A stretch of DNA of 64,000 nucleotides from Escherichia coli (GTDB taxonomy: Bacteria; Pseudomonadota; Gammaproteobacteria; Enterobacterales; Enterobacteriaceae), in assembly GCF_002854065.1 (NCBI RefSeq), contig NZ_CP024153.1. One strand, given 5' to 3'. The notes below the pieces were generated by a model that saw nothing but the letters and a program-made list of their open reading frames with translations, did no database searches and was not told the origin of the DNA. Position 1 is the first letter of the stretch; each line of letters begins with the position of its first letter. This document shows positions 2,801-28,316 of the stretch, in pieces. Made by a program: the position numbers and the translations under genes.

Positions 2801-3254
2801 ATTTTTCCCGATTCGACTTATTCGGGCGCTCCCCTGGCTCAAATGTGATTTCTCCATCCTCAACAGAGATCCCAGCCAGCCCCATGATAGAAAGATCCCC
2901 GGCCATTTCATCGGTGGTGCCGTTGGCGATTGCTGCCATCAGCTTTTCACGACTGGGGAAGCGATCCATCCAACTGATCCGATAGTCATCCGTCATCAGG
3001 CTTTCATATGCTTCCAAGAAGCGCCCGCCCTCAATGGCATAATCCGCCATCTTGTCGCCGGTTCGTGCTCCACCAGGTGCGCCGGTGCTGCTTGGCATTA
3101 GTCCGATAGCTTCCATGAAGTCGGCCCATTCCTTGTTGTGATAGCCACGCCGCCCAGGCTTGCCGAAATGGTGCTGCCATAGGTGGCACATTTCGTGGCA
3201 AAGCGTTTGCATAATTTCTTCGGGGGGGCATACGGCGAAGTAAGCCGGATTCAT
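2801..3254 (-). pseudogene. SprT-like zinc metalloprotease (HExxH) gene fragment, truncated by IS26; possibly mpR-like
   Basis: ORF contains HEMCHLWQHH zinc-binding motif near its start and reads into the IS26 end. Confidence 0.55.
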
Positions 3255-3350
3255 GGCGATTTCGTCCGTCCGGGTTCCTTGGGAGTTAACGAACCTCTCC
3301 GGGCTGAAATAGCCATAGGTTTGTTTTTCTCGTTGGAGGTGTAGGAGAGG

Positions 3351-3490
3351 AATAAAGTTTCATACTAAGCAGTCAAGTAACCCTGTTTGTACCGTTCTAA
3401 ATGATACTCACCCAGAAATAAAGATTCATACTAATTCCTACTACAAAATCTGAGTCACGCTACAACTGAGTAATAAAGTATCATACTGGT
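3351..3490. repeat. Three direct repeats AATAAAGNNTCATACTR (starting at 3351, 3418 and 3473) downstream of qnrS
   Basis: Read directly in sequence; spacing 67 and 55 bp. Confidence 0.6.
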
Positions 3491-3636
3491 TGTCTTGAGC
3501 ATCCACAGATTGATTGGCCCCATTCAAACACGTTTCTGGACAAGAATGAGCTAGAAGTATTGATCTAGCTCTGGTGATTTGAATTAGAAAATGTATTAAT
3601 GTTGTGTATAGTTTATCAGCAGGTATTCGTAAGCAT

Positions 3637-4293
3637 CTAGTCAGGAAAAACAACAATACCCAACGCTTCGAGAAGCTGTTCTTGTTGCCAGCTGGCAATT
3701 TTGATACCTGATGTATCGACTTTTCGAGGATCTAAACCGTCGAGTTCGGCGTGACATAAATTAGCACCCTGTAGGCTAAACTGTCCCCAGACATCTTCAG
3801 AAAAAACACCTCGACTTAAGTCTGACTCTTTCAGTGATGCGCCCGCGAGGTGAGTCCCTATCCAGCGATTTTCAAACAGCTCACATTTTTCTAAACAGAC
3901 CCGCTCCATATTGGCATAAGACAGGTTACATCCAGTAATAAAGGCTGAGCAAAAGTACATACGATTACTCACTTGATTGGCAAAGTTTGCTCGGGAAAAG
4001 TTGGCCCCTTTTAAATCACACTCACGTAACTCAATACCGTAGCAATTGGCGTTACTAAAGTTTGCCATCGCAAGCTGGCATTGTTGGAAACTTGCATCGC
4101 GAAGGTCTGCGACATCAAAATGGCAACCTTCGATATCACCCTGTTCAATGAACTTGCAGTTAATAAATGTCGCATCACGCAAGTTAGCACGTCGAAAATC
4201 GCATCGGATAAAGGTGCAAGCAGTGAAAGTAATATCACTTAGATCTTGATGTGAAAAACTGTGGTGTCGATATGTGTGACGGTAGGTTTCCAT
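3637..4293 (-). CDS. qnrS: Qnr pentapeptide-repeat quinolone-resistance protein, QnrS family (closest to recalled QnrS2)
   Basis: 218 aa, METYRHTYRHHSFSHQDLSDITFTACTFIRCDFRRANLRD... with tandem pentapeptide repeats and C-terminal ...LEALGIVVFPD. Confidence 0.9.
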   Translation of the reverse strand: METYRHTYRHHSFSHQDLSDITFTACTFIRCDFRRANLRDATFINCKFIEQGDIEGCHFDVADLRDASFQQCQLAMANFSNANCYGIELRECDLKGANFSRANFANQVSNRMYFCSAFITGCNLSYANMERVCLEKCELFENRWIGTHLAGASLKESDLSRGVFSEDVWGQFSLQGANLCHAELDGLDPRKVDTSGIKIASWQQEQLLEALGIVVFPD

Positions 4294-4460
4294 GTTGACT
4301 CCTATGATGAACTGGACGCAACACTACCATCAAAGCCACATCACATCACCAAAATAAAAACACTAAAAATCAAGATCTTAAAAACCCTCATTTTGCCTAT
4401 TTTAAGGGGGTAAAATAGCGCCCTGAGCCTCTATGTTAACGTTCAAAGTACGCGGCACCA

Positions 4461-5093
4461 TTGAAAAAAGTTATCCGCTTAAAAAGCCACAGAGAAAAGG
4501 AACCCAATAGATTACTGATGTCCGCCATGTTGGTTTCATCTAGTGCCCTGCTCCGTGTATTGGATTGCACAATCTATAACCATTATGCGGCAGCCTTTTG
4601 GATTGCACAATCCAAAGTTAGGGGAAGCCGACGAGCCAGGGAGCCCCGCGACCTGGTGAGCCTGGCCGAAGGCCAAAAGCCACTGCAAAACCGAAAAATT
4701 TCGTACGTACGAAAAAACATGGGGGGGTTAGAACTAGGGCAGGAAGAAGGTACATTACATAAATTAGCAAGTAGGTTAGGAATTTCATATCCCACCGCCG
4801 TTAGTTGGACTACCGACATAGGAATAAAGCTAAATCGGCAAGGCTATAATAGCCCCTCTCACGACTTTACAAATCTACAATGCCGCCATGCCAGGGAATT
4901 TCTAAAAATGACCAGGGATGATTTCTGCTCGTTATCCAAAGTAAGCAAAACAGCTCTAAGGGAATTTGAATTAGGGAAGGCCAATATCAGGAGAGAGACG
5001 GCTAATAAAATATTGGCCGCTTTTGAGGTGATGGGGATCAGGTTCAATGCTGATGGCACCTTTTCACATGGCCAAAGCACCCCCCGCGATTGA
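4461..5093 (+). CDS. Hypothetical HTH (XRE-like) DNA-binding protein; true start probably internal (about 4719)
   Basis: C-terminal ~90 aa resemble an HTH_XRE domain; the N-terminal 86 aa of the ORF are low-complexity and probably not coding. Confidence 0.4.
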   Translation: MKKVIRLKSHREKEPNRLLMSAMLVSSSALLRVLDCTIYNHYAAAFWIAQSKVRGSRRAREPRDLVSLAEGQKPLQNRKISYVRKNMGGLELGQEEGTLHKLASRLGISYPTAVSWTTDIGIKLNRQGYNSPSHDFTNLQCRHAREFLKMTRDDFCSLSKVSKTALREFELGKANIRRETANKILAAFEVMGIRFNADGTFSHGQSTPRD

Positions 5094-5157
5094 CTGCGCA
5101 ACCTGCTTTTTTATGTTAAATGGCAGTGCGAGAAGTGAGCTATGATGCGGCTTTCAG

Positions 5158-5343
5158 CTAGGTATCAGATGGCGACAATCTCGCCAATGCTGCGTTTAAA
5201 GTCGGCCTAGACACACCAAAGTGTTTTGCAACTTCAGCTTTCGTTATCTCTACATCCGACAGCATGGCCCTTGCCTTCCTGGCGTCTTCATCTGACATGG
5301 CCAAGGGTCGCCCACCGCGTCGCCCTCTTGCCCTTGCTGCCTC
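5158..5343 (-). pseudogene. Serine recombinase (resolvase/invertase) 3' fragment with C-terminal HTH, truncated by IS26
   Basis: Protein tail ...GRRGGRPLAMSDEDARKARAMLSDVEITKAEVAKHFGVSRPTLNAALARL resembles a resolvase C-terminal DNA-binding domain; upstream part replaced by IS26. Confidence 0.55.
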
Positions 5344-6163
5344 GGCACTGTTGCAAATAGTCGGTGGTGATAAACTTATCATCCCCTTTTGCTGATGGAG
5401 CTGCACATGAACCCATTCAAAGGCCGGCATTTTCAGCGTGACATCATTCTGTGGGCCGTACGCTGGTACTGCAAATACGGCATCAGTTACCGTGAGCTGC
5501 AGGAGATGCTGGCTGAACGCGGAGTGAATGTCGATCACTCCACGATTTACCGCTGGGTTCAGCGTTATGCGCCTGAAATGGAAAAACGGCTGCGCTGGTA
5601 CTGGCGTAACCCTTCCGATCTTTGCCCGTGGCACATGGATGAAACCTACGTGAAGGTCAATGGCCGCTGGGCGTATCTGTACCGGGCCGTCGACAGCCGG
5701 GGCCGCACTGTCGATTTTTATCTCTCCTCCCGTCGTAACAGCAAAGCTGCATACCGGTTTCTGGGTAAAATCCTCAACAACGTGAAGAAGTGGCAGATCC
5801 CGCGATTCATCAACACGGATAAAGCGCCCGCCTATGGTCGCGCGCTTGCTCTGCTCAAACGCGAAGGCCGGTGCCCGTCTGACGTTGAACACCGACAGAT
5901 TAAGTACCGGAACAACGTGATTGAATGCGATCATGGCAAACTGAAACGGATAATCGGCGCCACGCTGGGATTTAAATCCATGAAGACGGCTTACGCCACC
6001 ATCAAAGGTATTGAGGTGATGCGTGCACTACGCAAAGGCCAGGCCTCAGCATTTTATTATGGTGATCCCCTGGGCGAAATGCGCCTGGTAAGCAGAGTTT
6101 TTGAAATGTAAGGCCTTTGAATAAGACAAAAGGCTGCCTCATCGCTAACTTTGCAACAGTGCC
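5344..6163 (+). mobile_element. IS26 copy 2
   Basis: Identical to copy 1 including terminal repeats. Confidence 0.95.
5389..6111 (+). CDS. tnpA: IS26 transposase Tnp26 (Gly184 form)
   Basis: Identical 240-aa ORF. Confidence 0.95.
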   Translation: MLMELHMNPFKGRHFQRDIILWAVRWYCKYGISYRELQEMLAERGVNVDHSTIYRWVQRYAPEMEKRLRWYWRNPSDLCPWHMDETYVKVNGRWAYLYRAVDSRGRTVDFYLSSRRNSKAAYRFLGKILNNVKKWQIPRFINTDKAPAYGRALALLKREGRCPSDVEHRQIKYRNNVIECDHGKLKRIIGATLGFKSMKTAYATIKGIEVMRALRKGQASAFYYGDPLGEMRLVSRVFEM

Positions 6164-6409
6164 GTCGATTGAAACACGGTGCATCTGATCGGACAGGGCG
6201 TCTAAGAGCGGCGCAATACGTCTGATCTCATCGGCCGGCGATACAGGCCTCGCGTCCGGATGGCTGGCGGCCGGTCCGACATCCACGACGTCTGATCCGA
6301 CTCGCAGCATTTCGATCGCCGCGGTGACAGCGCCGGCGGGGTCTAGCCGCCGGCTCTCATCGAAGAAGGAGTCCTCGGTGAGATTCAGAATGCCGAACAC
6401 CGTCACCAT
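6164..6409 (-). pseudogene. sul1: sul1 dihydropteroate synthase, first ~82 codons only; truncated by IS26
   Basis: [82 protein letters not shown] then IS26. Confidence 0.9.
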
Positions 6410-6750
6410 GGCGTCGGCCTCCGCAGCGACTTCCACGATGGGGATCGGGCGAGCAAAAAGGCAGCAATTATGAGCCCCATACCTACAAAGCCCCACGCAT
6501 CAAGCTTTTGCCCATGAAGCAACCAGGCAATGGCTGTAATTATGACGACGCCGAGTCCCGACCAGACTGCATAAGCAACACCGACAGGGATGGATTTCAG
6601 AACCAGAGAAAGAAAATAAAATGCGATGCCATAACCGATTATGACAACGGCGGAAGGGGCAAGCTTAGTAAAGCCCTCGCTAGATTTTAATGCGGATGTT
6701 GCGATTACTTCGCCAACTATTGCGATAACAAGAAAAAGCCAGCCTTTCAT
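6403..6750 (-). CDS. qacEdelta1: QacEdelta1 small multidrug-resistance efflux protein (class 1 integron 3'-CS)
   Basis: 115 aa [81 protein letters not shown]... Confidence 0.9.
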
Positions 6751-6972: not shown

Positions 6973-7425
6973 CTAGTCTTCAATGACGTGTAAACCACGG
7001 CGCTTTAAGTCCTCCAACGAATCCAACATTCCCCTTATTAATTCAACAGGATGCCCCTCCCAGTCTTCAACAACGCCAACAATTCTCAAGGGTTCGCAGG
7101 TTCTATAGGACTGTGTTGGATTACCGGGAAATCTTTTGTTCGTAAGATTCGGATCGTCTTCGAACGGTCCTGTTGGCTCAACTATGTATATGTAGCCGCG
7201 ACCCTCGAGGCCAGACAGTGACATAGCAAGTTCAGCTCCCCAAACTGCTGGCTCCATCAAGGCTGAAAAGTAGATGTGCTTAAGAATACGACCGTCCTCG
7301 AAATGAGAGATGAACCCTGTGGTTAGCAAGTCACCAATCGCCAAATTGGCTTTGGTTCCATGATAGAACGGTCCTTGAACCTGCTTGTAATTATCATGAG
7401 AGATGGGAATCCAATCTTTTACCAT
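6973..7425 (-). CDS. arr-3: Arr-3 rifampin ADP-ribosyltransferase (integron cassette)
   Basis: 150 aa MVKDWIPISHDNYKQVQGPFYHGTKANLAIGDLLTTGF... Confidence 0.9.
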   Translation of the reverse strand: MVKDWIPISHDNYKQVQGPFYHGTKANLAIGDLLTTGFISHFEDGRILKHIYFSALMEPAVWGAELAMSLSGLEGRGYIYIVEPTGPFEDDPNLTNKRFPGNPTQSYRTCEPLRIVGVVEDWEGHPVELIRGMLDSLEDLKRRGLHVIED

Positions 7426-7509
7426 TTTAAGACCCTTAATTGTTGGGATTTGGCTGCATAACGCCTGAAATAAGCCGTGCCGCGAAGCGGCATCGGCTTG
7501 ATTGAATTG

Positions 7510-8142
7510 TTAGACGGCAAACTCGAGCCAATACTTGTGCAGGCCAACAATATTAGACGAGCACAGCATGGGCATTGCCGCTTTGATCTTCTCCAGTGAC
7601 CAATTCCACCACTCCATCTCCAGAAGCAATGAAATTTCCTCATCGGTGAAGCGTTTCTTAATCTTCTTAGCGGGATTGCCGCCAACGATAGCGTAAGGCT
7701 CCACATCTTTTGTCACCAACGAGCGGCTGCCTATCACCGCACCGTGCCCGATCTTGATTCCGGGCATGACCATTGCCTCAGAGCCGATCCAAACGTCATT
7801 GCCAATGACAGTATTACCTGCTTTTTGGAAGGCATCGAGTGCGCTTGAGAATGCAGGTTCTTCCTGCATATAAAAGAACGGGAAAGATGATGCCCAGTCG
7901 TACCGATGCCCCTGATTGCCAGCCATGATAAAGGAAGCCCCACTCCCGATAGAGCAGAAACTACCGATGATCAACTTATCAACGTCATCACGGTCCGGAA
8001 ACAGATACCGTGCGCAGTCATCGAATGAGTGCCCATGATAGTAGCCAGAGTAATAGCTGTACCGCCCAACTTTGATATTGGGGTTCTTCACTTGCTCAGA
8101 AAGCAGCTTGCCTTTGAAGGGGCTATCAAAGTAGTTGGTCAT
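7510..8142 (-). CDS. catB3: CatB3 xenobiotic (chloramphenicol) acetyltransferase, full length (integron cassette)
   Basis: 210 aa [42 protein letters not shown]... with hexapeptide-repeat acetyltransferase character. Confidence 0.9.
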
Positions 8143-8279
8143 AAGAGATCCCGCGGTCTGTGACTTTGCCGTCTAACGTTTGAAATAAGGGGCGCCGAGC
8201 GCCAGCGAGGGGAGCCAAAAGCTTGCTTTTGGCCGTCCCGACTTGATTGAAGGGTTGGGCGATTTTGCCATTAGATTTT

Positions 8280-9110
8280 TTATAAATTTAGTGTGTTTAG
8301 AATGGTGATCGCATTTTTCTTGGCTTTTATGCTTGATGTTAAATTCGACCCCAAGTTTCCTGTAAGTGCGGACACAAAAACATATTTATGTCCTGATTTG
8401 CTTATAATAAACCCTTCAAACCATCCGTTTTGTAAGGTTCTATTTGCTGTGAATCCTGCACCAGTTTTCCCATACAGTTTTGTACTATTATCCAGATCTT
8501 GTAGATACATGTTCTCTATGGTGTTTTCTATGGCTGAGTTTTTAACTGGGAGATTGTGATTAATAATTTTACGCAGGAATTGAATTTGTTCTTCTGGTGA
8601 AATTTTTAAGCTACTTTCGAGCCATGCTTCTGTTAATCCGTTGTTTCTTTCTTTATCTCCAGAGAAGTCTTGATTTCCATAATCAAAATCTTTGAGATAA
8701 TTCTTGATTTTATTTAATCCAATTTTTTGGGTTATTTCTTGCGAAACCCAAACAACAGAAAATTGCATCCACGTCTTTGGTGTATGATTGCTGTTCCAGA
8801 TCTCCATTCCTTTGGGGGTTTTATCCCATTTGAATATGGTTTTCTGATCTATTATTTCCGCATCAAATGCCATAAGTGATAATGCGATCTTGAAAGTTGA
8901 ATCTGGTGCCATTTGCGTTGCACACTTTGCTTTATTGAATTGAGCAATTTCAGCGTTTGTGGATGCATCGTAAAGTAAAAAACAACCTTCAGTTCCTTCA
9001 AATAATGGAGATGCAACAGTAGAGATATCTGTTGATGCACTGGCGCTGCTGTAGATAATATTTGCAATTATTAAAAAAATAGCGAAGTTGATATGTATTG
9101 TGTTTTTCAT
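8280..9110 (-). CDS. blaOXA-1: OXA-1 class D beta-lactamase (integron cassette)
   Basis: 276 aa from internal start MKNTIHINFAIFLIIANIIYSSASASTDISTV...; STFK active-site motif present; the ORF track extends 15 codons upstream. Confidence 0.93.
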   Translation of the reverse strand: MKNTIHINFAIFLIIANIIYSSASASTDISTVASPLFEGTEGCFLLYDASTNAEIAQFNKAKCATQMAPDSTFKIALSLMAFDAEIIDQKTIFKWDKTPKGMEIWNSNHTPKTWMQFSVVWVSQEITQKIGLNKIKNYLKDFDYGNQDFSGDKERNNGLTEAWLESSLKISPEEQIQFLRKIINHNLPVKNSAIENTIENMYLQDLDNSTKLYGKTGAGFTANRTLQNGWFEGFIISKSGHKYVFVSALTGNLGSNLTSSIKAKKNAITILNTLNL

Positions 9111-9240
9111 AATAAGTATTGGTTTGGTAAAGGGCTTAATTTTAACGGCTAACAATTAATGAGGCTCCGGGTTCGCCCAACGTTTGACATGAGGGGCGGC
9201 CAAGGGCGCCAGCCCTTGGACGTCCCCCTCGATGGAAGGG

Positions 9241-9840
9241 TTAGGCATCACTGCGTGTTCGCTCGAATGCCTGGCGTGTTTGAACCATGTACACGGCTGG
9301 ACCATATGGGGTGGTTACGGTACCTTGCCTCTCAAACCCCGCTTTCTCGTAGCATCGGATCGCTCGCAAGTTGCTCGGCGACGGGTCCGTTTGGATCTTG
9401 GTGACCTCGGGATCATTGAACAGCAACTCAACCAGAGCTCGAACCAGCTTGGTTCCCAAGCCTTTGCCCAGTTGTGATGCATTCGCCAGTAACTGGTCTA
9501 TTCCGCGTACTCCTGGATCGGTTTCTTCTTCCCACCGTCCGTCCCCGCTTCCAAGAGCAACGTACGACTGGGCATACCCAATCGGCTCTCCATTCAGCAT
9601 TGCAATGTATGGAGTGACGGACTCTTGCGCTAAAACGCTTGGCAAGTACTGTTCCTGTACGTCAGCAAGTGTCGGGCGTGCTTCTTCTCCGCCCCACCAC
9701 TCGACGATATGAGATCGATTTAGCCACTCATAGAGCATCGCAAGGTCATGCTCAGTCATGAGGCGCAGTGTGACGGAATCGTTGCTGTTGGTCACGATGC
9801 TGTACTTTGTGATGCCTAACTTTGTTTTTGCGTTGCTCAT
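9241..9840 (-). CDS. aac(6')-Ib-cr: AAC(6')-Ib-cr aminoglycoside/fluoroquinolone acetyltransferase (Trp-to-Arg and Asp-to-Tyr variant); alternative GTG start at 9879
   Basis: ...[28 protein letters not shown]... and ...[15 protein letters not shown]... carry both -cr-defining substitutions. Confidence 0.9.
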
Positions 9841-9958
9841 GATGTCTAACTCCCAATTTGTGTAGGGCTTATTATGCACGCTTAAAAATAATAAAAGCAG
9901 ACTTGACCTGATAGTTTGGCTGTGAGCAATTATGTGCTTAGTGCATCTAACTTTGTTT

Positions 9959-10023
9959 TAGGGCGACTGCCCTGCTGCGTAACATCGTTGCTGCTCCATA
10001 ACATCAAACATCGACCCACGGCG
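9959..10023 (-). other. attI1 recombination site of integron A (approximate)
   Basis: 5'-CS sequence ...GCCCTAAAACAAAG/TTAG... junction with the first cassette. Confidence 0.5.
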
Positions 10024-10086
10024 TAACGCGCTTGCTGCTTGGATGCCCGAGGCATAGACTGTACAAAAAAACAGTCATAACAAGCC

Positions 10087-10768
10087 ATGAAAACCGCCAC
10101 TGCGCCGTTACCACCGCTGCGTTCGGTCAAGGTTCTGGACCAGTTGCGTGAGCGCATACGCTACTTGCATTACAGTTTACGAACCGAACAGGCTTATGTC
10201 CACTGGGTTCGTGCCTTCATCCGTTTCCACGGTGTGCGTCACCCGGCAACCTTGGGCAGCAGCGAAGTCGAGGCATTTCTGTCCTGGCTGGCGAACGAGC
10301 GCAAGGTTTCGGTCTCCACGCATCGTCAGGCATTGGCGGCCTTGCTGTTCTTCTACGGCAAGGTGCTGTGCACGGATCTGCCCTGGCTTCAGGAGATCGG
10401 AAGACCTCGGCCGTCGCGGCGCTTGCCGGTGGTGCTGACCCCGGATGAAGTGGTTCGCATCCTCGGTTTTCTGGAAGGCGAGCATCGTTTGTTCGCCCAG
10501 CTTCTGTATGGAACGGGCATGCGGATCAGTGAGGGTTTGCAACTGCGGGTCAAGGATCTGGATTTCGATCACGGCACGATCATCGTGCGGGAGGGCAAGG
10601 GCTCCAAGGATCGGGCCTTGATGTTACCCGAGAGCTTGGCACCCAGCCTGCGCGAGCAGCTGTCGCGTGCACGGGCATGGTGGCTGAAGGACCAGGCCGA
10701 GGGCCGCAGCGGCGTTGCGCTTCCCGACGCCCTTGAGCGGAAGTATCCGCGCGCCGGGCATTCCTGGC
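10087..10768 (+). pseudogene. intI1: intI1 class 1 integrase, 3'-truncated by IS26 (about 227 of 337 codons)
   Basis: [53 protein letters not shown]...; ORF runs into the IS26 terminal repeat at 10769. Confidence 0.9.
10174..10202 (-). promoter_or_regulatory. Integron Pc cassette promoter, TGGACA-N17-TAAACT (PcH1-type)
   Basis: Hexamers read on minus strand inside the intI1 5' region. Confidence 0.6.
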
Positions 10769-11588
10769 GGCACTGTTGCAAATAGTCGGTGGTGATAAAC
10801 TTATCATCCCCTTTTGCTGATGGAGCTGCACATGAACCCATTCAAAGGCCGGCATTTTCAGCGTGACATCATTCTGTGGGCCGTACGCTGGTACTGCAAA
10901 TACGGCATCAGTTACCGTGAGCTGCAGGAGATGCTGGCTGAACGCGGAGTGAATGTCGATCACTCCACGATTTACCGCTGGGTTCAGCGTTATGCGCCTG
11001 AAATGGAAAAACGGCTGCGCTGGTACTGGCGTAACCCTTCCGATCTTTGCCCGTGGCACATGGATGAAACCTACGTGAAGGTCAATGGCCGCTGGGCGTA
11101 TCTGTACCGGGCCGTCGACAGCCGGGGCCGCACTGTCGATTTTTATCTCTCCTCCCGTCGTAACAGCAAAGCTGCATACCGGTTTCTGGGTAAAATCCTC
11201 AACAACGTGAAGAAGTGGCAGATCCCGCGATTCATCAACACGGATAAAGCGCCCGCCTATGGTCGCGCGCTTGCTCTGCTCAAACGCGAAGGCCGGTGCC
11301 CGTCTGACGTTGAACACCGACAGATTAAGTACCGGAACAACGTGATTGAATGCGATCATGGCAAACTGAAACGGATAATCGGCGCCACGCTGGGATTTAA
11401 ATCCATGAAGACGGCTTACGCCACCATCAAAGGTATTGAGGTGATGCGTGCACTACGCAAAGGCCAGGCCTCAGCATTTTATTATGGTGATCCCCTGGGC
11501 GAAATGCGCCTGGTAAGCAGAGTTTTTGAAATGTAAGGCCTTTGAATAAGACAAAAGGCTGCCTCATCGCTAACTTTGCAACAGTGCC
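10769..11588 (+). mobile_element. IS26 copy 3
   Basis: 820 bp with both terminal repeats. Confidence 0.95.
10814..11536 (+). CDS. tnpA: IS26 transposase Tnp26 (Gly184 form)
   Basis: Identical 240-aa ORF. Confidence 0.95.
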   Translation: MLMELHMNPFKGRHFQRDIILWAVRWYCKYGISYRELQEMLAERGVNVDHSTIYRWVQRYAPEMEKRLRWYWRNPSDLCPWHMDETYVKVNGRWAYLYRAVDSRGRTVDFYLSSRRNSKAAYRFLGKILNNVKKWQIPRFINTDKAPAYGRALALLKREGRCPSDVEHRQIKYRNNVIECDHGKLKRIIGATLGFKSMKTAYATIKGIEVMRALRKGQASAFYYGDPLGEMRLVSRVFEM

Positions 11589-11628
11589 AGACAAAAGGCT
11601 GCCTCATCGCTAACTTTGCAACAGTGCC
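11589..11628 (+). repeat. Tandem second copy of the last 40 bp of IS26 (remnant of an earlier IS26)
   Basis: AGACAAAAGGCTGCCTCATCGCTAACTTTGCAACAGTGCC occurs twice in direct succession (11549-11588 and 11589-11628). Confidence 0.85.
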
Positions 11629-12137
11629 CCCTCCCGCACGATGATCGTGCCGTGATCGAAATCCAGATCCTTGACCCGCAGTTGCAAACCCTCACTGATC
11701 CGCATGCCCGTTCCATACAGAAGCTGGGCGAACAAACGATGCTCGCCTTCCAGAAAACCGAGGATGCGAACCACTTCATCCGGGGTCAGCACCACCGGCA
11801 AGCGCCGCGACGGCCGAGGTCTTCCGATCTCCTGAAGCCAGGGCAGATCCGTGCACAGCACCTTGCCGTAGAAGAACAGCAAGGCCGCCAATGCCTGACG
11901 ATGCGTGGAGACCGAAACCTTGCGCTCGTTCGCCAGCCAGGACAGAAATGCCTCGACTTCGCTGCTGCCCAAGGTTGCCGGGTGACGCACACCGTGGAAA
12001 CGGATGAAGGCACGAACCCAGTGGACATAAGCCTGTTCGGTTCGTAAACTGTAATGCAAGTAGCGTATGCGCTCACGCAACTGGTCCAGAACCTTGACCG
12101 AACGCAGCGGTGGTAACGGCGCAGTGGCGGTTTTCAT
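11629..12137 (-). pseudogene. intI1: intI1 class 1 integrase, 3'-truncated at a different point (about 170 codons retained)
   Basis: Same N-terminus as the other intI1, ends ...[12 protein letters not shown] then IS26-end sequence. Confidence 0.9.
12022..12050 (+). promoter_or_regulatory. Integron Pc cassette promoter, TGGACA-N17-TAAACT (PcH1-type)
   Basis: Hexamers read directly in the 5'-CS. Confidence 0.6.
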
Positions 12138-12211
12138 GGCTTGTTATGACTGTTTTTTTGTACAGTCTATGCCTCGGGCATCCAAGCAGCAAGCGCGTTA
12201 CGCCGTGGGTC

Positions 12212-12277
12212 GATGTTTGATGTTATGGAGCAGCAACGATGTTACGCAGCAGGGCAGTCGCCCTAAAACAAAGTTAG
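12212..12277 (+). other. attI1 recombination site of integron B (approximate)
   Basis: 5'-CS ...GCCCTAAAACAAAG/TTAG junction with the dfrA12 cassette. Confidence 0.5.
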
Positions 12278-12281
12278 CCAT

Positions 12282-12779
12282 ATGAACTCGGAATCAGTAC
12301 GCATTTATCTCGTTGCTGCGATGGGAGCCAATCGGGTTATTGGCAATGGTCCTAATATCCCCTGGAAAATTCCGGGTGAGCAGAAGATTTTTCGCAGACT
12401 CACTGAGGGAAAAGTCGTTGTCATGGGGCGAAAGACCTTTGAGTCTATCGGCAAGCCTCTACCGAACCGTCACACATTGGTAATCTCACGCCAAGCTAAC
12501 TACCGCGCCACTGGCTGCGTAGTTGTTTCAACGCTGTCGCACGCTATCGCTTTGGCATCCGAACTCGGCAATGAACTCTACGTCGCGGGCGGAGCTGAGA
12601 TATACACTCTGGCACTACCTCACGCCCACGGCGTGTTTCTATCTGAGGTACATCAAACCTTCGAGGGTGACGCCTTCTTCCCAATGCTCAACGAAACAGA
12701 ATTCGAGCTTGTCTCAACCGAAACCATTCAAGCTGTAATTCCGTACACCCACTCCGTTTATGCGCGTCGAAACGGCTAA
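12282..12779 (+). CDS. dfrA12: DfrA12 trimethoprim-resistant dihydrofolate reductase (cassette)
   Basis: 165 aa MNSESVRIYLVAAMGANRVIGNGPNIPWKIPGEQKIFRRLTEGKVVVMGRKTFESIG... Confidence 0.93.
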   Translation: MNSESVRIYLVAAMGANRVIGNGPNIPWKIPGEQKIFRRLTEGKVVVMGRKTFESIGKPLPNRHTLVISRQANYRATGCVVVSTLSHAIALASELGNELYVAGGAEIYTLALPHAHGVFLSEVHQTFEGDAFFPMLNETEFELVSTETIQAVIPYTHSVYARRNG

Positions 12780-12890
12780 CCATTCCGTCAACGGGACGCC
12801 AAAATGCTGCGCATTTTGGTTCCCTCCGCTGCGCTCCGGCTCTCGTTACGTCCAACGTTAGCACCACTGAAACCCAGCTTTATTTAGCTC

Positions 12891-13181
12891 ATGTTTATTC
12901 AAACGGCATTTAGCTTTTCAGGCGTTATTCAGTGCCTGTTTTGCCTTTTTTCCGGGCTTCGCCTGCATGGGCTGCGCAGGTTTTCAGTCTTTTTGGCCTC
13001 TAGCCCTTGCGTAGCAAGCGCAAGCAGCTATCGTTTTTGCAGTGCTGTGCCGCCTCGGTGGCGCAGCGTTTTTTCACGGTTAGCGCCCGTCGCCAAATTC
13101 AAGTTATCCGTTTTGGCTTCTGGTTCTAACATTTCGGTCAAGCCGACCCGCATTCTGCGGTCGGCTTACCTCGCCCGTTAG
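12891..13181 (+). CDS. gcuF: gcuF/orfF gene cassette of unknown function
   Basis: 96-aa ORF between dfrA12 and aadA2, the position of the classic array. Confidence 0.75.
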   Translation: MFIQTAFSFSGVIQCLFCLFSGLRLHGLRRFSVFLASSPCVASASSYRFCSAVPPRWRSVFSRLAPVAKFKLSVLASGSNISVKPTRILRSAYLAR

Positions 13182-13186
13182 ACATC

Positions 13187-13978
13187 ATGAGGGAAGCGGT
13201 GACCATCGAAATTTCGAACCAACTATCAGAGGTGCTAAGCGTCATTGAGCGCCATCTGGAATCAACGTTGCTGGCCGTGCATTTGTACGGCTCCGCAGTG
13301 GATGGCGGCCTGAAGCCATACAGCGATATTGATTTGTTGGTTACTGTGGCCGTAAAGCTTGATGAAACGACGCGGCGAGCATTGCTCAATGACCTTATGG
13401 AGGCTTCGGCTTTCCCTGGCGAGAGCGAGACGCTCCGCGCTATAGAAGTCACCCTTGTCGTGCATGACGACATCATCCCGTGGCGTTATCCGGCTAAGCG
13501 CGAGCTGCAATTTGGAGAATGGCAGCGCAATGACATTCTTGCGGGTATCTTCGAGCCAGCCATGATCGACATTGATCTAGCTATCCTGCTTACAAAAGCA
13601 AGAGAACATAGCGTTGCCTTGGTAGGTCCGGCAGCGGAGGAATTCTTTGACCCGGTTCCTGAACAGGATCTATTCGAGGCGCTGAGGGAAACCTTGAAGC
13701 TATGGAACTCGCAGCCCGACTGGGCCGGCGATGAGCGAAATGTAGTGCTTACGTTGTCCCGCATTTGGTACAGCGCAATAACCGGCAAAATCGCGCCGAA
13801 GGATGTCGCTGCCGACTGGGCAATAAAACGCCTACCTGCCCAGTATCAGCCCGTCTTACTTGAAGCTAAGCAAGCTTATCTGGGACAAAAAGAAGATCAC
13901 TTGGCCTCACGCGCAGATCACTTGGAAGAATTTATTCGCTTTGTGAAAGGCGAGATCATCAAGTCAGTTGGTAAATGA
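13187..13978 (+). CDS. aadA2: AadA2 streptomycin/spectinomycin adenylyltransferase ANT(3'')-Ia family (cassette)
   Basis: 263 aa MREAVTIEISNQLSEVLSVIERHLESTLLAVHLYGSAVDGGLKPYSDIDLLVTV... Confidence 0.93.
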   Translation: MREAVTIEISNQLSEVLSVIERHLESTLLAVHLYGSAVDGGLKPYSDIDLLVTVAVKLDETTRRALLNDLMEASAFPGESETLRAIEVTLVVHDDIIPWRYPAKRELQFGEWQRNDILAGIFEPAMIDIDLAILLTKAREHSVALVGPAAEEFFDPVPEQDLFEALRETLKLWNSQPDWAGDERNVVLTLSRIWYSAITGKIAPKDVAADWAIKRLPAQYQPVLLEAKQAYLGQKEDHLASRADHLEEFIRFVKGEIIKSVGK

Positions 13979-14032
13979 TGTCTAACAATTCGTTCAAGCC
14001 GACCGCGCTACGCGCGGCGGCTTAACTCCGGC

Positions 14033-14132
14033 GTTAGATGCACTAAGCACATAATTGCTCACAGCCAAACTATCAGGTCAAGTCTGCTTTTATTATTTTT
14101 AAGCGTGCATAATAAGCCCTACACAAATTGGG
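14033..14132 (+). other. First ~100 bp of the class 1 integron 3'-CS, cut before qacEdelta1
   Basis: Same sequence as 6760-6858 (inverted) up to ...ACACAAATTGGG, then unrelated low-GC DNA. Confidence 0.8.
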
Positions 14133-14462
14133 TAAAACCGCAAGAACTGTAATTATGAATTTGTCAGAAAACTATCCGTACAAGGAAGTGTATGAAAAAT
14201 GTCTGGTATAATAAAGATATCATCTTGAAAATCGAGTGTTGCTCTGTGGATAACTTGCAGGGTTTAATAAGTATCTTTACTCAAAAGTTGCAATCAATAA
14301 TTTATTGAAAAAGATTGAAAGGTGGTGGTAAATAATGTTACAATGTGGGAGTATCAGTTTAAATTCTTCGTGAAATAGTGTTCTTTTAAGCTAATAAAAA
14401 ATGCACGTGGAATTTAGGTCAAAGAAAAGTAAAGAAAAATTTATTTATGGAGGTAAAAAAGG

Positions 14463-14855
14463 ATGAGTCAAGTTGTTGATTTTTTAAATGAAGCAAAAAC
14501 TTTTTATTTTGCAACCGTTGAAGGAGACCAGCCAAGGGTCAGACCGTTTAATGCAGCCATGGAGAGGAATGGCAAGGTCTATCTTGGTACAACCAATCAG
14601 AAAAAAGTTTATCAGCAGTTATTGGCAAATTCAAAGGTGGAAGTCTCAGGTATGGCAAAAGGAAAATGGATTCGGCTCACCGGCGAAGCCGTAATTGATG
14701 ATACCGTGGAAGCAAGGGAAGCAATGCTTGAAGCAAATCCGCCTTTGAGAGATTGGTATAGCGCTGATGATGGGAAATTCACCGTATTTTATTTGAAAAA
14801 CATGCAGGCAGTTTTATATTCCTTTACAGGAGATCCGGAGATATTAGATAATTAA
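14463..14855 (+). CDS. Pyridoxamine-5'-phosphate-oxidase-like FMN-binding family protein (hypothetical) in low-GC segment
   Basis: 130-aa ORF with AT-rich upstream region and RBS-like GGAGG; family assignment by general sequence character, unverified. Confidence 0.5.
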   Translation: MSQVVDFLNEAKTFYFATVEGDQPRVRPFNAAMERNGKVYLGTTNQKKVYQQLLANSKVEVSGMAKGKWIRLTGEAVIDDTVEAREAMLEANPPLRDWYSADDGKFTVFYLKNMQAVLYSFTGDPEILDN

Positions 14856-15095
14856 TCAAAACATGCAGCCCAGTGGTAGAATGAACTGACCCCCATAAGT
14901 TAGACCAAAAATCTAACTTATGGGAGGTCATTTTTTATGGCAAAATACAGTTATGAATTTAAGTTACAAGTTGTTCAAGCATATTTAGATTTTTATTTTG
15001 TCCGTTTTGTCTAGCTTACCGAAAGCCAGACTCAGCAAGAATAAAATTTTTATTGTCTTTCGGTTTTCTAGTGTAACGGACAAAACCACTCAAAA

Positions 15096-15133
15096 TAAAA
15101 AAGATACAAGAGAGGTCTCTCGTATCTTTTATT
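15096..15133 (-). terminator. Bidirectional hairpin terminator downstream of bleO
   Basis: A-run, stem GATACAAGAGAG/CTCTCGTATC, T-run read directly. Confidence 0.5.
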
Positions 15134-15174
15134 CAGCAATCGCGCCCGATTGCTGAACAGATTAATAATAGATT

Positions 15175-15552
15175 TTAGCTTTTTATTTGTTGAAAAAAGC
15201 TAATCAAATTGTTGTCGGGATCAATTACTGCAAAGTCTCGTTCATCCCACCACTGATCTTTTAATGATGTATTGGGGTGCAAAATGCCCAAAGGCTTAAT
15301 ATGTTGATATAATTCATCAATTCCCTCTACTTCAATGCGGCAACTAGCAGTACCAGCAATAAACGACTCCGCACCTGTACAAACCGGTGAATCATTACTA
15401 CGAGAGCGCCAGCCTTCATCACTTGCCTCCCATAGATGAATCCGAACCTCATTACACATTAGAACTGCGAATCCATCTTCATGGTGAACCAAAGTGAAAC
15501 CTAGTTTATCGCAATAAAAACCTATACTCTTTTTAATATCCCCGACTGGCAA
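15175..15552 (-). CDS. bleO: Bleomycin-binding protein, glyoxalase/VOC fold (BleO-like, Gram-positive type)
   Basis: 125 aa MPVGDIKKSIGFYCDKLGFTLVHHEDGFAVLMCNEVRIHLWEASDEGW... matches recalled pUB110-type Ble. Confidence 0.75.
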   Translation of the reverse strand: MPVGDIKKSIGFYCDKLGFTLVHHEDGFAVLMCNEVRIHLWEASDEGWRSRSNDSPVCTGAESFIAGTASCRIEVEGIDELYQHIKPLGILHPNTSLKDQWWDERDFAVIDPDNNLISFFQQIKS

Positions 15553-15648
15553 TGCCGGGATAGACTATTATTCTCCCCGGAGCCACTACGCTGACCCGGT
15601 TGATTTCAGAGGTAAGGGAAAAGGCGACGTTGCGCCTGTGGAACAAAC

Positions 15649-16470
15649 GGCACTGTTGCAAAGTTAGCGATGAGGCAGCCTTTTGTCTTATTCAAAGGCC
15701 TTACATTTCAAAAACTCTGCTTACCAGGCGCATTTCGCCCAGGGGATCACCATAATAAAATGCTGAGGCCTGGCCTTTGCGTAGTGCACGCATCACCTCA
15801 ATACCTTTGATGGTGGCGTAAGCCGTCTTCATGGATTTAAATCCCAGCGTGGCGTTGATTATCCGTTTCAGTTTGCCATGATCGCATTCAATCACGTTGT
15901 TCCGGTACTTAATCTGTCGGTGTTCAACGTCAGACGGGCACCGGCCTTCGCGTTTTGAGCAGAGCAAGCGCGCGACCATAGGCGGGCGCTTTATCCGTGT
16001 TGATGAATCGTGGGAATCTGCCACTTCTTCACGTTGTTGAGGATTTTACCCAGAAACCGGTATGCAGCTTTGCTGTTACGACGGGAGGAGAGATAAAAAT
16101 CGACAGTGCGGCCCCGGCTGTCGACGGCCCGGTACAGATACGCCCAGCGGCCATTGACCTTCACGTAGGTTTCATCCATGTGCCACGGGCAAAGATCGGA
16201 AGGGTTACGCCAGTACCAGCGCAGCCGTTTTTCCATTTCAGGCGCATAACGCTGAACCCAGCGGTAAATCGTGGAGTGATCGACATTCACTCCGCGTTCA
16301 GCCAGCATCTCCTGCAGCTCACGGTAACTGATGCCGTATTTGCAGTACCAGCGTACGGCCCACAGAATGATGTCACGCTGAAAATGCCGGCCTTTGAATG
16401 GGTTCATGTGCAGCTCCATCAGCAAAAGGGGATGATAAGTTTATCACCACCGACTATTTGCAACAGTGCC
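15649..16470 (-). mobile_element. IS26 copy 4 (822 bp; two 1-bp insertions)
   Basis: Both terminal repeats present; extra A at about 16010 (GGGAATCTG vs GGGATCTG) and extra T at about 15953 (GCGTTTTGAGC vs GCGTTTGAGC). Confidence 0.95.
15701..16425 (-). pseudogene. tnpA: IS26 tnpA disrupted by frameshift (split into 144-aa and 107-aa ORFs; Asn184 form)
   Basis: ORFs 15991-16425 and 15701-16024 together cover Tnp26 with a frame change between them. Confidence 0.85.
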
Positions 16471-16584: not shown

Positions 16585-16673
16585 GAACTATTGAAGTAAT
16601 CAATCAAATTTTATAGGCTGATAGCCAAGTAACAACCACCAATGATATGCCAGGTAAAATCAGGGGACGTAAA

Positions 16674-18110
16674 ATGAGTACTCTTGATGTTCAGAAGCTC
16701 AAGGATGATGCCGTCGAATGGGCCTTAACTCATGGTGTTGCTTTCAAGGAATCGTCGTATTCCGCAGTGCATACCCCGTTTACCCTGACACCAACACCTA
16801 TCAGCCGTAAATCCTATCAGTACTTAAAGAATGCAACAGGAATACTCAGCAAATTAATCTATTCAGTTTCTGAGGATCATGATTTTTTGTACTCTGCGAT
16901 TTATCCCATCAAGGCCGGGAATGCCTTCTTTTCAGCCCTCCTGAACATGCATCAACAAATCCATTCATCATCAAGGCATGCTCCTCGATTACCATTACTC
17001 ATTATGCGTAGCGACTTTATGGATGATAATCGTGATGGGTTCAGGCTTATAGAGTTCAATGGTATAGCTGCAGGAATGGGGCCGTTTGGTCAGCGGATAC
17101 ATGATCTGCATCACTATCTACAACGGCAATATCCCGCTGTCTTTTCTGATTTATCGAATCAGGCAACAGGGGCGCTTGTCGACAATCAAGCGATCGAAGG
17201 GTTATCAGCAGCGATTTGTCAGGCAACTTGCAGAATTAAGCAGGAGTTCGGAGACCCCGGCCCTGCCAGGTTCCTGATGATTGTGCAGGAGAATGAAAAT
17301 AATGTGTTTGATCAACACTTGCTTGAGCTCGCCCTCCAGCAAAAAGGAATCGAAACGCATCGCAGGACTTTTCGTGAACTGCATAATCAATTGAGTACAG
17401 GCGCCGACAACAGGCTCATTCTCGAGGGTGTAGGCCCACTTGATACCGTCTACTTACGTGCCGGATATCAGTATTCTGATTATGAAGCATTCAATATCGA
17501 TGAGCAGGAGTGTTGTCAGGCGCTGATGGCGACCCGAGTATTCATTGAGCAGCACCGGGTTGCAGTGAACGCCACAGTTGGCCAGCAACTGGCGACCAGC
17601 AAGCGAGTACAAATGCTGCTCTCGCAATTGGGTTACGACGAGTTTGTCGCATTTGGATTAACACTGCAGGAAGCTAAAATAGCAAAAACGATACTGGGTG
17701 AGATGTTACCCATCAGCCCGGATAGTATCAACCTTGCAAAAGAGTCTCCTTCGGAAACCTGGGTTCTCAAAAATCAGGGTGAAGGCGGGGGGCATTGTCT
17801 GTTTGGTGCGGATATCCTGACAAAACTGACGGAACTCACTCCACAACAATATCAGTCCTGGTCGCTGATGCGCCGTTTACACCCTCAGCCCCGAGCTATG
17901 CCCACCTTGATTGTGCGTAAAGGGGAGTTGCATAAGGTGAATGATTTGATAAGCGAACTTGGAATGTTCTCCGTGCAGACAGATAACAATCCCTCCAGTG
18001 CTGAGCACAGTTTTGCTGGATATCTAATTCGTAGCAAATCAGCTGAATCGACAGAGGGAGGGGTCCATAGTGGACAAGGTGTTTTAGACTCGCTGGTATA
18101 CAGCGATTAG
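16674..18110 (+). CDS. Eukaryotic-type glutathione synthetase-like ATP-grasp protein (ORF track start 16647)
   Basis: Blocks resembling recalled human GSS: TPFTLTPT, IEFNGIAAGMGP, LMIVQENENNVFDQ...IETHRRTFREL, VYLRAGYQ, KNQGEGGGHCLFG. Confidence 0.7.
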   Translation: MSTLDVQKLKDDAVEWALTHGVAFKESSYSAVHTPFTLTPTPISRKSYQYLKNATGILSKLIYSVSEDHDFLYSAIYPIKAGNAFFSALLNMHQQIHSSSRHAPRLPLLIMRSDFMDDNRDGFRLIEFNGIAAGMGPFGQRIHDLHHYLQRQYPAVFSDLSNQATGALVDNQAIEGLSAAICQATCRIKQEFGDPGPARFLMIVQENENNVFDQHLLELALQQKGIETHRRTFRELHNQLSTGADNRLILEGVGPLDTVYLRAGYQYSDYEAFNIDEQECCQALMATRVFIEQHRVAVNATVGQQLATSKRVQMLLSQLGYDEFVAFGLTLQEAKIAKTILGEMLPISPDSINLAKESPSETWVLKNQGEGGGHCLFGADILTKLTELTPQQYQSWSLMRRLHPQPRAMPTLIVRKGELHKVNDLISELGMFSVQTDNNPSSAEHSFAGYLIRSKSAESTEGGVHSGQGVLDSLVYSD

Positions 18111-18527
18111 TCCCTTTCAAGGGGGCTGAAATCTGGTTATATGAAAGCATGCGGTAAGTGGTGTTTTAGCCCCAGTGGAGATGATGCTGTTTCTAGACTG
18201 AGTCGTAGTAAGCTAATAATAGTATTATAAATGAAGCCATGAGGGTATTTACAGGGCATATCTTATTAAGGGAACAACAGCAAAAACTGCTGCTATAAGA
18301 GGCTGCACCCAAAGTTCTTCAAGGTTCACATCATCGCTGCTGGGTCGATGCTGTTTCAGTTACGGGTCAATTTTCAATACCATTAGCTGTTCCTGTGACT
18401 ACGGTCATTACGCGCTGTCGACATCAATTTGTACAGCAAACAGTCTTAGCGTGGGATATTTAATGAGATGGTCACTCCCTCCTTCCCGGTACTATGCTGA
18501 GGATAGGCTTTCATTCGGAGAACTATC

Positions 18528-19532
18528 ATGGAAAACATTGCGCTCATTGGTATCGATCTGGGTAAAAACTCTTTCCATATTCATTGCCAAGATCGTCGCG
18601 GCAAGGCTGTTTACCGTAAAAAATTTACACGGCCAAAGTTAATCGAATTTTTGGCGACATGCCCCGCTACAACCATCGCAATGGAAGCCTGTGGTGGCTC
18701 TCACTTTATGGCACGCAAGTTGGAAGAGTTGGGGCATTTTCCTAAGCTGATATCACCACAATTTGTCCGTCCATTCGTTAAAAGTAACAAAAACGACTTT
18801 GTCGACGCCGAAGCTATTTGTGAAGCTGCATCGCGTCCGTCTATGCGTTTTGTACAGCCCAGAACTGAATCTCAGCAGGCAATGCGTGCGCTGCATCGTG
18901 TCCGTGAATCCCTGGTTCAGGATAAGGTAAAAACAACCAATCAGATGCATGCTTTTCTGCTGGAATTTGGCATCAGCGTTCCACGAGGAGCTGCCGTTAT
19001 TAGCCGACTGAGTACCCTTCTTGAGGACAATAGTTTGCCTCTATACCTCAGCCAGTTATTGCTGAAATTACAACAGCATTATCACTATCTTGTTGAGCAG
19101 ATTAAAGATTTGGAATCCCAGTTGAAACGAAAGTTGGACGAAGATGAGATTGGACAGCGCTTGCTGAGCATTCCCTGCGTCGGAACACTGACAGCGAGTA
19201 CTATTTCAACTGAGATTGGCGACGGGAAGCAGTACGCCAGCAGTCGTGACTTTGCGGCGGCAACAGGGCTAGTGCCTCGACAGTACAGCACGGGAGGTCG
19301 GACGACATTGCTGGGAATTAGTAAGCGAGGTAACAAAAAGATCCGAACTTTGTTGGTTCAATGTGCCAGGGTATTCATACAAAAACTGGAACACCAGTCT
19401 GGCAAATTGGCCGATTGGGTCAGGGATCTACTGTGTAGGAAAAGCAACTTTGTCGTCACTTGTGCTCTGGCAAACAAGCTGGCCAGAATAGCCTGGGCCC
19501 TAACGGCACGACAGCAAACTTATGTAGCATAA
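18528..19532 (+). CDS. IS110-family (DEDD) transposase/recombinase
   Basis: 334 aa MENIALIGIDLGKNSFHIHCQD... N-terminal RuvC-like DEDD character and C-terminal ...GISKRGNKKIRTLLVQCA... motif typical of the IS110 family. Confidence 0.85.
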   Translation: MENIALIGIDLGKNSFHIHCQDRRGKAVYRKKFTRPKLIEFLATCPATTIAMEACGGSHFMARKLEELGHFPKLISPQFVRPFVKSNKNDFVDAEAICEAASRPSMRFVQPRTESQQAMRALHRVRESLVQDKVKTTNQMHAFLLEFGISVPRGAAVISRLSTLLEDNSLPLYLSQLLLKLQQHYHYLVEQIKDLESQLKRKLDEDEIGQRLLSIPCVGTLTASTISTEIGDGKQYASSRDFAAATGLVPRQYSTGGRTTLLGISKRGNKKIRTLLVQCARVFIQKLEHQSGKLADWVRDLLCRKSNFVVTCALANKLARIAWALTARQQTYVA

Positions 19533-19807
19533 CGGCAGAAATACACCGGTTTAAAGAATCACTGATCTGGTTTTGCGAATACTGATATTGATGATACTAA
19601 CGGCCCACCGGCCTGTTGAGGAACCTGTAAAACGGAAAGGCTCATTGAAGCCGTATATTTTCTGGAGGTTCATCAGGCGCGGAACTCATCGAGGCGCGGG
19701 AATAAAATCCCATTCAGACGCCGGATAGATTCAAGCAAGCCAATTTATCGTCAAAATCGGTGTTGCAAAAACGGGAGTGACCATAGATTCCGTTTTCCAA
19801 GCGGACC

Positions 19808-19870
19808 CCGTGCTGTGTGGAAATCCGCCCACCTTGCCGGGCGCCGGTGCTGTGTGGAAATTCGCCCATC
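19808..19870. repeat. About 1.6 copies of the 37-bp repeat unit (inverted relative to the 56063-57150 array), just downstream of the truncated rep gene
   Basis: CCGTGCTGTGTGGAAATCCGCCCACCTTGCCGGGCGCCGGTGCTGTGTGGAAATTCGCCC is the reverse complement of the array unit. Confidence 0.75.
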
Positions 19871-19919
19871 TTCATGACAAAAATTTGTCAAATGACAGGC
19901 TCATGTGTGCTGATTTATG

Positions 19920-26448: not shown

Positions 26449-26457
26449 ACAGGATGA

Positions 26458-27264
<807 letters not shown>

Positions 27265-27284
27265 GCGGGACTCTGGGGTTCGAA

Positions 27285-28277: not shown

Positions 28278-28316
28278 CCAAAAAGAACAAGATTCACCGC
28301 AACCCAGGACACTGCC

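Follow-up and report, generated by a model that had tools for sequence, protein, structure and literature searches.

The window analyzed here is a stretch of 64,000 nucleotides of E. coli DNA, in which two class 1 integrons, A and B, converge on one IS26. The features relevant to this junction are distributed as follows (window coordinates, strand, description):

5344..6163, + strand: IS26 of canonical sequence, 820 bp; left boundary of the integron-A module; truncates sul1.
6164..6750, - strand: 3'-conserved segment of integron A, with qacEdelta1 (6403-6750) and sul1 cut by IS26 after ~81 codons (~6164-6406).
6973..9879, - strand: cassettes of integron A, i.e. aac(6')-Ib-cr (9241-9795/9879), blaOXA-1 (8280-9110), catB3 (7510-8142) and arr-3 (6973-7425).
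9947..10595, no strand: left arm of a 649-bp inverted repeat, made of the 5'-conserved segment with attI1-A and intI1 nt 1-509.
10087..10768, + strand: truncated intI1 of integron A, reference nt 1-682, or 227 codons plus 1 nt; the reading frame continues for 5 codons within IS26, stopping at 10785.
10202-10174, - strand: Pc promoter of integron A, TGGACA-17-TAAACT, reading left into the cassettes.
10769-11588, + strand: complete IS26, 820 bp, with 14-bp perfect terminal inverted repeats.
11589..11628, + strand: IS26 remnant of 40 bp, 100% identical to IS26 nt 781-820; abuts the complete IS26 and carries a second right-hand terminal inverted repeat.
11629..12277, no strand: right arm of the 649-bp inverted repeat, made of intI1 nt 1-509 and the 5'-conserved segment with attI1-B.
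12137-11629, - strand: truncated intI1 of integron B, reference nt 1-509, or 169 codons plus 2 nt; the reading frame continues for 6 codons within the IS26 remnant, stopping at 11610.
12022..12050, + strand: Pc promoter of integron B, TGGACA-17-TAAACT, reading right into dfrA12.
12282..13978, + strand: cassettes of integron B, i.e. dfrA12 (12282-12779), orfF/DUF1010 (12891-13181) and an aadA2-type gene (13187-13978).
15649..16470, - strand: inverted IS26, 822 bp; closes the integron-B segment; its tnp26 is frameshifted by two 1-nt insertions.

The integrase genes were considered first. Both intI1 fragments are 100% identical to the reference intI1, and no further intI1 sequence is present in the 64 kb beyond them, hence the window contains no intact copy. 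The first-pass annotation, made from the letters of the DNA, had placed the two cuts after ~227 and ~170 codons, in agreement with the lengths measured here, and had proposed that both integrases lost their C-terminal catalytic region. This loss is confirmed by domain coverage and by the catalytic residues. The Pfam Phage_integrase model (172 positions) is covered over positions 2-169 by full-length IntI1, over 2-87 by fragment A and over 2-60 by fragment B. In the reference protein the catalytic residues R146, K171, H277, R280, H303 and Y312 were found at those positions: fragment A keeps R146 and K171, fragment B keeps R146 only, and H277, R280, H303 and Y312 are absent from both. Since the C-terminal half of the tyrosine-recombinase domain and the Y312 nucleophile are gone, neither fragment can be active, and A and B are, as read from their sequence, integron remnants and not active integrons. 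The cassette arrays had also been described as frozen: this holds in cis, the integrases being dead, but not if IntI1 is supplied in trans, as attI1 and the cassettes are intact.

Each integron has the intI1 gene, divergent Pc promoter and adjacent attI1 site that characterize the class 1 5'-conserved segment. The two segments form a perfect inverted repeat of 649 bp (9947-10595 and 11629-12277, 1033 bp apart), the arms of which are identical and extend no further on either side. Both attI1 sites lie inside this intact repeat, and the 5'-conserved segment is the same in A and B up to the first cassette. The two Pc copies are the only promoter-like matches in positions 9800-12400. Their assignment to the TGGACA/TAAACT type is correct and can be refined to PcH1: -35 box TGGACA, 17-nt spacer, -10 box TAAACT and no TGN extended -10 (Table 1 of PMC2791841). 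PcH1 is present in 28% of class 1 integrons, and the strong variant PcS is ~4.5-fold stronger (PMC2791841). The P2 region reads TTGTTA-14-TACAGT, with a 14-bp spacer and not the 17-bp spacer of the active form.

All cassette genes of integron A match NCBIfam models above cut-off, and the signature residues of aac(6')-Ib-cr, W102R and D179Y, are present (GDGRWEE, TTPYGP). In its 3'-conserved segment the QacE model is covered over positions 2-102, and the Sul1 model over positions 1-83 of 278 only. Downstream of the aadA2-type gene of integron B we found a PNPOx-like gene, bleO and the inverted IS26, an arrangement identical to that of plasmid p14EC017b. Integron B appears to lack qacEdelta1-sul1: the list of open reading frames of the window contains one frame of qacEdelta1 size only, and none of that size comes after aadA2.

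The element between the two integrons is a complete IS26, starting with GGCACTGTTGCAAA at 10769 and ending with TTTGCAACAGTGCC at 11588. Its translation gives an intact tnp26 (10832-11536) of 234 amino acids with no internal stops. Its sequence is 100% identical to the window copies at 1981-2800 and 5344-6163, and to IS26 annotated in public plasmids. With the copy at 5344-6163, identical and in direct orientation, it bounds the integron-A module, which on this structural evidence corresponds to an IS26 pseudo-compound transposon. No 8-bp target-site duplication was found around it, the left flank reading TTCCTGGC vs AGACAAAA or CCCTCCCG on the right. Such an absence is expected after a deletion or at a cointegrate junction and is no argument against IS26 identity. 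Matching 8-bp flanks, which trace intramolecular events, were also sought by hand among all IS26 copies of the window, and none was seen. The two insertions in the inverted copy at 15649-16470 are homopolymeric and resemble unpolished long-read errors, indicating that assembly accuracy in repeats is imperfect.

The complete IS26 is followed immediately by a second copy of its own right end. A repeat search showed that 11549-11588 and 11589-11628 are identical, each with the sequence AGACAAAAGGCTGCCTCATCGCTAACTTTGCAACAGTGCC, exactly as noted in the first-pass annotation. The register of this duplicate is unambiguous, since the two copies share neither the base before them (A at 11548, C at 11588) nor the base after them (A at 11589, C at 11629), so that each copy ends exactly at the IS26 terminus. 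A perfect tandem repeat of 40 bp does not arise by chance. No microhomology was detected at the joint, and the combination of exact terminal boundaries, unambiguous register and zero microhomology points to a joint made by transposase. The segment is thus of the partial-IS26-end type: it is in direct orientation, contiguous with a complete copy, and its own end is the exact terminus. As far as its structure tells, it is a scar and itself no working part, though it brings a second Tnp26-binding end.

To place this junction among known plasmids we relied on contiguity-filtered BLAST, with strict E-value cut-offs such that only contiguous matches pass; at default thresholds a search with the whole junction was uninformative, as separate IS26 and intI1 pieces were merged into one place. 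The left junction, between intI1 nt 682 and the left end of IS26, was present in 350 PLSDB plasmids. Among them pHS13-1-IncHI2 carries the same integron-A array and left junction, but a qnrS2 module follows its IS26. The right junction without the duplicate, i.e. the right end of IS26 joined directly to intI1 nt 509, was present in 15 PLSDB plasmids. The 175-aa fusion reading frame created by this IS26/intI1-nt-509 junction was found in 106 blocks of a public assembly collection, and the duplicate was absent from all five contigs (5/5) that reach far enough into IS26 at that point. The duplicate-free junction occurs with the same dfrA12-orfF-aadA2 array, and p14EC017b differs from window positions 11629-16470 at 5 positions. 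Each outer junction is old and common, and circulates widely by itself.

The complete arrangement of the window gave a different result. No PLSDB record has the 40-bp duplicate beside intI1, and none of the complete E. coli RefSeq genomes contains the duplicate. Comparison with related plasmids had been proposed as a way to find intermediate structures: each outer junction was recovered alone, but the joined form intI1(682)-IS26-intI1(509) without the duplicate has no PLSDB record, and 0/18 places with at least 80% query cover had the expected span of 1561 bp. Tandem IS26 right ends were also sought with exact and gapped patterns in genome, metagenome and viral contig collections, and gave no match, which probably reflects the breaking of short-read contigs at IS26 boundaries and the small number of resistance plasmids in these collections. 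As the duplicate-free IS26/intI1-nt-509 junction is widespread, IS26 was already there and the 40 bp were added at an existing junction; accordingly the earlier proposal, that an older IS26 left these 40 bp as its footprint, is the best explanation, the route being inferred. As both the join and the duplicate are missing from the records searched, they are lineage-specific, and a single event accounts for the two.

Several known structures resemble the one described here. Tn6020 of Acinetobacter baumannii (IS26-v1-delta-v2) likewise contains a complete IS26 abutted by a partial one (PMC9602291, PMC7986276, PMC11102541), but there an aphA1 transposon carries the fragment, which is 175 bp long and derives from an IS26 variant that can be told apart, whereas that of the window is 40 bp long, has no diagnostic SNPs and lies between integron fragments. 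The P2 pseudo-compound transposon of Klebsiella pneumoniae KpWEA has, at its left IS26, a complete element followed by a partial copy of 193 bp, supported by long reads, and the authors suggest that the extra end may affect the formation of translocatable units (PMC11102541). The 193-bp copy is linked to abundant circular and amplified units, whereas in the window the next IS26 rightward is inverted, so that the extra end delimits no direct-repeat unit there. IS15, which is an IS15-delta inserted in another IS15-delta, shows that the group targets its own copies (PMC7986276); it keeps both complete copies, unlike the window, where only 40 bp of the target copy are left. As in the window, class 1 integrons meet head to head at one IS26 in pA68_p0, in the plasmid of Shigella flexneri SWHIN_104 and in pE312_IMP6. 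The first of these has the intI1-nt-682 junction of the window, but the three plasmids have other truncation points and arrays, and no duplicated IS26 end. Conversely pHS13-1-IncHI2 (module A) and p14EC017b (module B) have the same cassette order, PcH1 and IS26 truncation points as the window, but their two modules are not adjacent. The junction is thus very probably a real IS26-made mosaic, of a sort usual in IS26-rich resistance plasmids, and a new instance of documented structures.

We propose that 11589-11628 arose by copy-in of one IS26 into another at nt 781-788, joining two modules that had been built separately; we give this reading a probability of roughly 0.55. The plasmid comparison shows that intI1 was cut at nt 682 by one IS26, beside the aac(6')-Ib-cr/blaOXA-1/catB3/arr-3 array, and at nt 509 by a separate IS26, beside dfrA12-orfF-aadA2. 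The right end of the module-A IS26 would then have attacked the module-B IS26 by Tnp26 copy-in, a replicative reaction, at the 8-bp target AGACAAAA (IS26 nt 781-788). The attack could have been intramolecular, the intervening DNA being deleted as a translocatable unit, or intermolecular, giving a cointegrate. By either route the product would be a complete IS26, then the 40 terminal bp of the resident copy, then the original flank of that copy. IS26 copy-in is reported to duplicate an 8-bp target, and with a target in cis it leads to an adjacent deletion as a translocatable unit while the IS stays beside the target (PMC9602291). The lack of an 8-bp duplication around the window IS26 is what either an adjacent deletion or a cointegrate would leave, and IS15, the 175 bp of Tn6020 and the 193 bp of KpWEA are precedents for insertion of IS26 into IS26 and for partial copies that abut complete ones. 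Against copy-in, the window lacks the reciprocal product, in which IS26 nt 1-788 would run into the left end of IS26. The local sequence cannot distinguish this route from its rivals.

Searches of public sequences for the duplicate by itself identified ~20 further cases of a complete IS26 abutted by a terminal remnant, with a few discrete remnant lengths and differing flanks. Outside the window, right-end remnants of 40 bp were found beside 2 unrelated flanks (pZ1323SSL0045-2 and BB1542_pRMTE4), of 37 bp beside 6 (e.g. pB16EC0942-6, pEH13_1, pCUVET18-62.1, pVNCKp83 and pCRST035_1), of 63 bp beside 3 (e.g. p_dm655_NDM5 and pK230_KPC) and of 56 bp beside 1. Left-end remnants measure 35, 37, 38 and 39 bp (pSCU-118-1, pQZPH21-KPC and others). 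Every such remnant ends exactly at the IS terminus, and that of pVNCKp83 has one SNP vs the adjacent IS26. Short remnants such as those of pZ1323SSL0045-2 and pEH13_1 have the same architecture as the window, with the fragment in direct orientation, but their outer flanks differ and none lies beside intI1 nt 509. A duplicate-free form of the BB1542_pRMTE4 junction was also sought: a single imperfect match was obtained, and no ancestor for that context. Literature searches on 37-bp or 40-bp IS26 duplications returned IncN iteron repeats only, and those on IS26 remnants or fragments nothing beyond Tn6020.

The recurrence of remnant lengths is the only mildly unexplained point of this analysis. 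Nine right-end contexts in the detectable range of 35-45 bp have two lengths only (p = 1.2e-5 under uniform choice), which does not fit a purely random choice of target, and the target choice of IS26 is described as random (PMC9602291). The same lengths recurring beside unrelated flanks are thus not predicted by a single random hit, a point that counts against the copy-in reading. That short end-remnants are non-random, or that IS26 with a doubled end is mobile, is possible but somewhat doubtful. Tnp26 may preferentially strike just inside an IS26 end to which it or a partner is bound, as an off-register by-product of its known targeting of other IS26 copies, or doubled-end IS26 of 857, 860 and 883 bp may be heritable variants that are moved or swapped via their outer end; if such variants are real, the 40 bp of the window would be one more landing of one of them. 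The idea that such remnants arise only in a strict hot zone, 35-40 bp inside the end, is weakened by the 56- and 63-bp remnants obtained in a control search and by the published 175- and 193-bp cases.

One rival of the copy-in reading is that a pre-existing composite of IS26 plus 40 bp (860 bp) was placed on the IS26/intI1-nt-509 junction via exchange at the outer terminal repeat. The exchange could be a targeted conservative reaction of Tnp26, for which identity at the reacting end suffices, or RecA recombination within the 40 bp. Targeted conservative cointegration is established at either IS end, Tnp26 binds probes that hold just the terminal 40 bp of IS26 (PMC8477213), and the few remnant lengths seen across many flanks, too few for random hits by the p-value given above, are also in its favour. 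In pCRST035_1 the entire 857-bp unit of IS26 plus 37 bp lies between the two copies of an 8-bp target duplication, GTCGAAAG, which fits movement of the unit, but insertion of a second IS26 into a resident copy in situ would predict the same duplication just as well. There is moreover no record of a 40-bp composite with the left flank of the window, and at least one more event is needed than under copy-in, so that we regard this origin as unlikely. A further rival would have the integrons joined on one ordinary IS26 by homologous or conservative recombination, followed by a same-orientation insertion at nt 781-788 and by collapse of the resulting 788-bp direct repeats to IS26 plus 40 bp. Both original flanks would be kept, as with the pCRST035_1 composite bracketed by its target duplication, and the iso-IS26 inside an iso-IS26 of IS15 is a precedent (PMC7986276). 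This scheme is improbable: it needs three events, and its intermediate, intI1(682)-IS26-intI1(509) without the duplicate, is the form that PLSDB failed to yield.

The two remaining explanations dispense with IS26 activity at the joint. The 40 bp could be an assembly artefact at a repeat boundary, for example a graph overlap left untrimmed or repeat edges joined wrongly, a possibility that the first-pass annotation had named. A multi-copy repeat does end precisely where the duplicate sits, and assemblers perform worst at such borders; the structure in this exact form occurs in no other record searched; and the homopolymer insertions of the copy at 15649-16470 look like errors left by incomplete polishing. 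However only one of the 15 IS26 ends of the window is affected, and the same kind of structure exists in independently assembled sister plasmids (CP149304/CP149300 and OV753989/OV753994). The SNP that separates the pVNCKp83 remnant from its neighbouring IS26 is something that an overlap artefact cannot give, the lengths of 35, 37, 38, 39, 40, 56 and 63 bp match no single k-mer convention, and longer versions have been verified by long reads or earlier sequencing. We consequently hold an artefact to be very unlikely. Least credible is a tandem duplication independent of transposase, e.g. by replication slippage, ending by chance at the IS26 terminus: the two 40-bp copies are indeed tandem and identical, but the borders of the duplication have zero microhomology, and the same chance match to the IS terminus would be needed in each of the ~20 other cases, at both IS ends.

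The practical value of these observations is modest, and doubled IS26 ends, if they are non-random or mobile, would be of moderate specialist interest; tandem IS26 ends are overlooked by annotation pipelines. The 40-bp scar gives an order to the events, in that the dfrA12 integron was IS26-bounded before the aac(6')-Ib-cr/blaOXA-1 module joined it, and it provides a marker of this lineage by which the plasmid region can be followed. Both arrays are predicted to be expressed from their intact PcH1 promoters despite the dead integrases. With PcH1 and attI1 kept and the integrases dead, the resistance phenotype would be stable, and reshuffling of the cassettes would occur only via an integrase supplied in trans.

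The IS26 copies of the window (starts at 1981, 5344, 10769, 15649, 20602, 27458 and 33474) were compared and fall into two sequence types. The three left-hand copies (1981, 5344 and 10769) are of the canonical type. The four right-hand copies (15649, 20602, 27458 and 33474) carry GG613-614AA, which gives Tnp26 G184N as in IS26-v1, the variant with enhanced activity, together with the silent G459A. Along the window the type changes at the junction where the complete IS26 (10769-11588) is followed by a 40-bp copy of its own right end (11589-11628). This switch fits two blocks of different origins meeting at the junction, which was not found in complete E. coli RefSeq genomes.

Doubled IS26 ends are found in other plasmids. 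In about 20 public records (loci L001-L006 and L009-L020) a complete IS26 has an exact fragment of an IS26 end directly beside it, of 37, 40, 56 or 63 bp for the right end and 35-39 bp for the left end. Identical fragment lengths recur beside unrelated flanks, and the fragments are unmarked in the annotation of these records. One of these is the locus of pCRST035_1 (L009):

NZ_AP045806.1, locus 2362-3234: IS26 plus a 37-bp right-end remnant, 857 bp in total

This unit is bordered on both sides by the 8-bp direct repeat GTCGAAAG and lies in a chemotaxis-protein-like gene, beside TnAs1-type tnpR/tnpA. The doubled-end element behaves like one single insertion.

Directly left of the integron-A module (aac(6')-Ib-cr/blaOXA-1/catB3/arr-3) is the following:

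1981-6163: qnrS2 module, qnrS at 3637-4293, with a canonical IS26 at each end, both in direct orientation

This module is on the opposite side of the integron in pHS13-1-IncHI2; such a rearrangement is what IS26 translocatable units are expected to produce. On the right, the integron-B segment (dfrA12-orfF-aadA2) differs from p14EC017b by a sole substitution across 4.8 kb otherwise identical, namely GTG versus AGT at 14873-14875, just downstream of a PNPOx-like gene. Also on this side are the following two IS26 sequences:

15649-16470, minus strand: IS26 copy of 822 bp, with two insertions of one base each, both in short homopolymers
23184-23328, minus strand: a second IS26 remnant, of 145 bp (IS26 nt 676-820), one edge being an IS terminus

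Both insertions frameshift tnp26 of the 822-bp copy beyond residue ~131, whereas its p14EC017b counterpart has the normal 820 bp; the copy is either genuinely inactivated or contains unpolished long-read errors within a repeat. An IS91-family transposase gene (23494-24693) adjoins the 145-bp remnant.

The remaining features are as follows:

16647-20648: eukaryote-type glutathione synthase gene (gshB), IS110-family transposase and replication-initiator gene cut by IS26
Within 25011-34293 and 35387-62000: IS4/Tn5-type transposase with aph(3')-II; oqxAB between IS26 copies; sil/copper-silver resistance region; IS30-family transposase; sopAB partition genes

The first resembles IncN-derived fragments reported in F33:A-:B- plasmids (PMC6052338). 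The sil/copper-silver region is 98-99.9% identical to E. coli plasmids from pig and human. Because of the cargo and backbone in 25011-34293 and 35387-62000, the window DNA is plasmid.

Around the junction IS26, the two 5'-conserved segments form a perfect 649-bp inverted repeat (9947-10595 and 11629-12277). If these arms recombined homologously, a 1033-bp segment would invert, which would reverse the orientation of IS26 and exchange which integron has the longer intI1 fragment.
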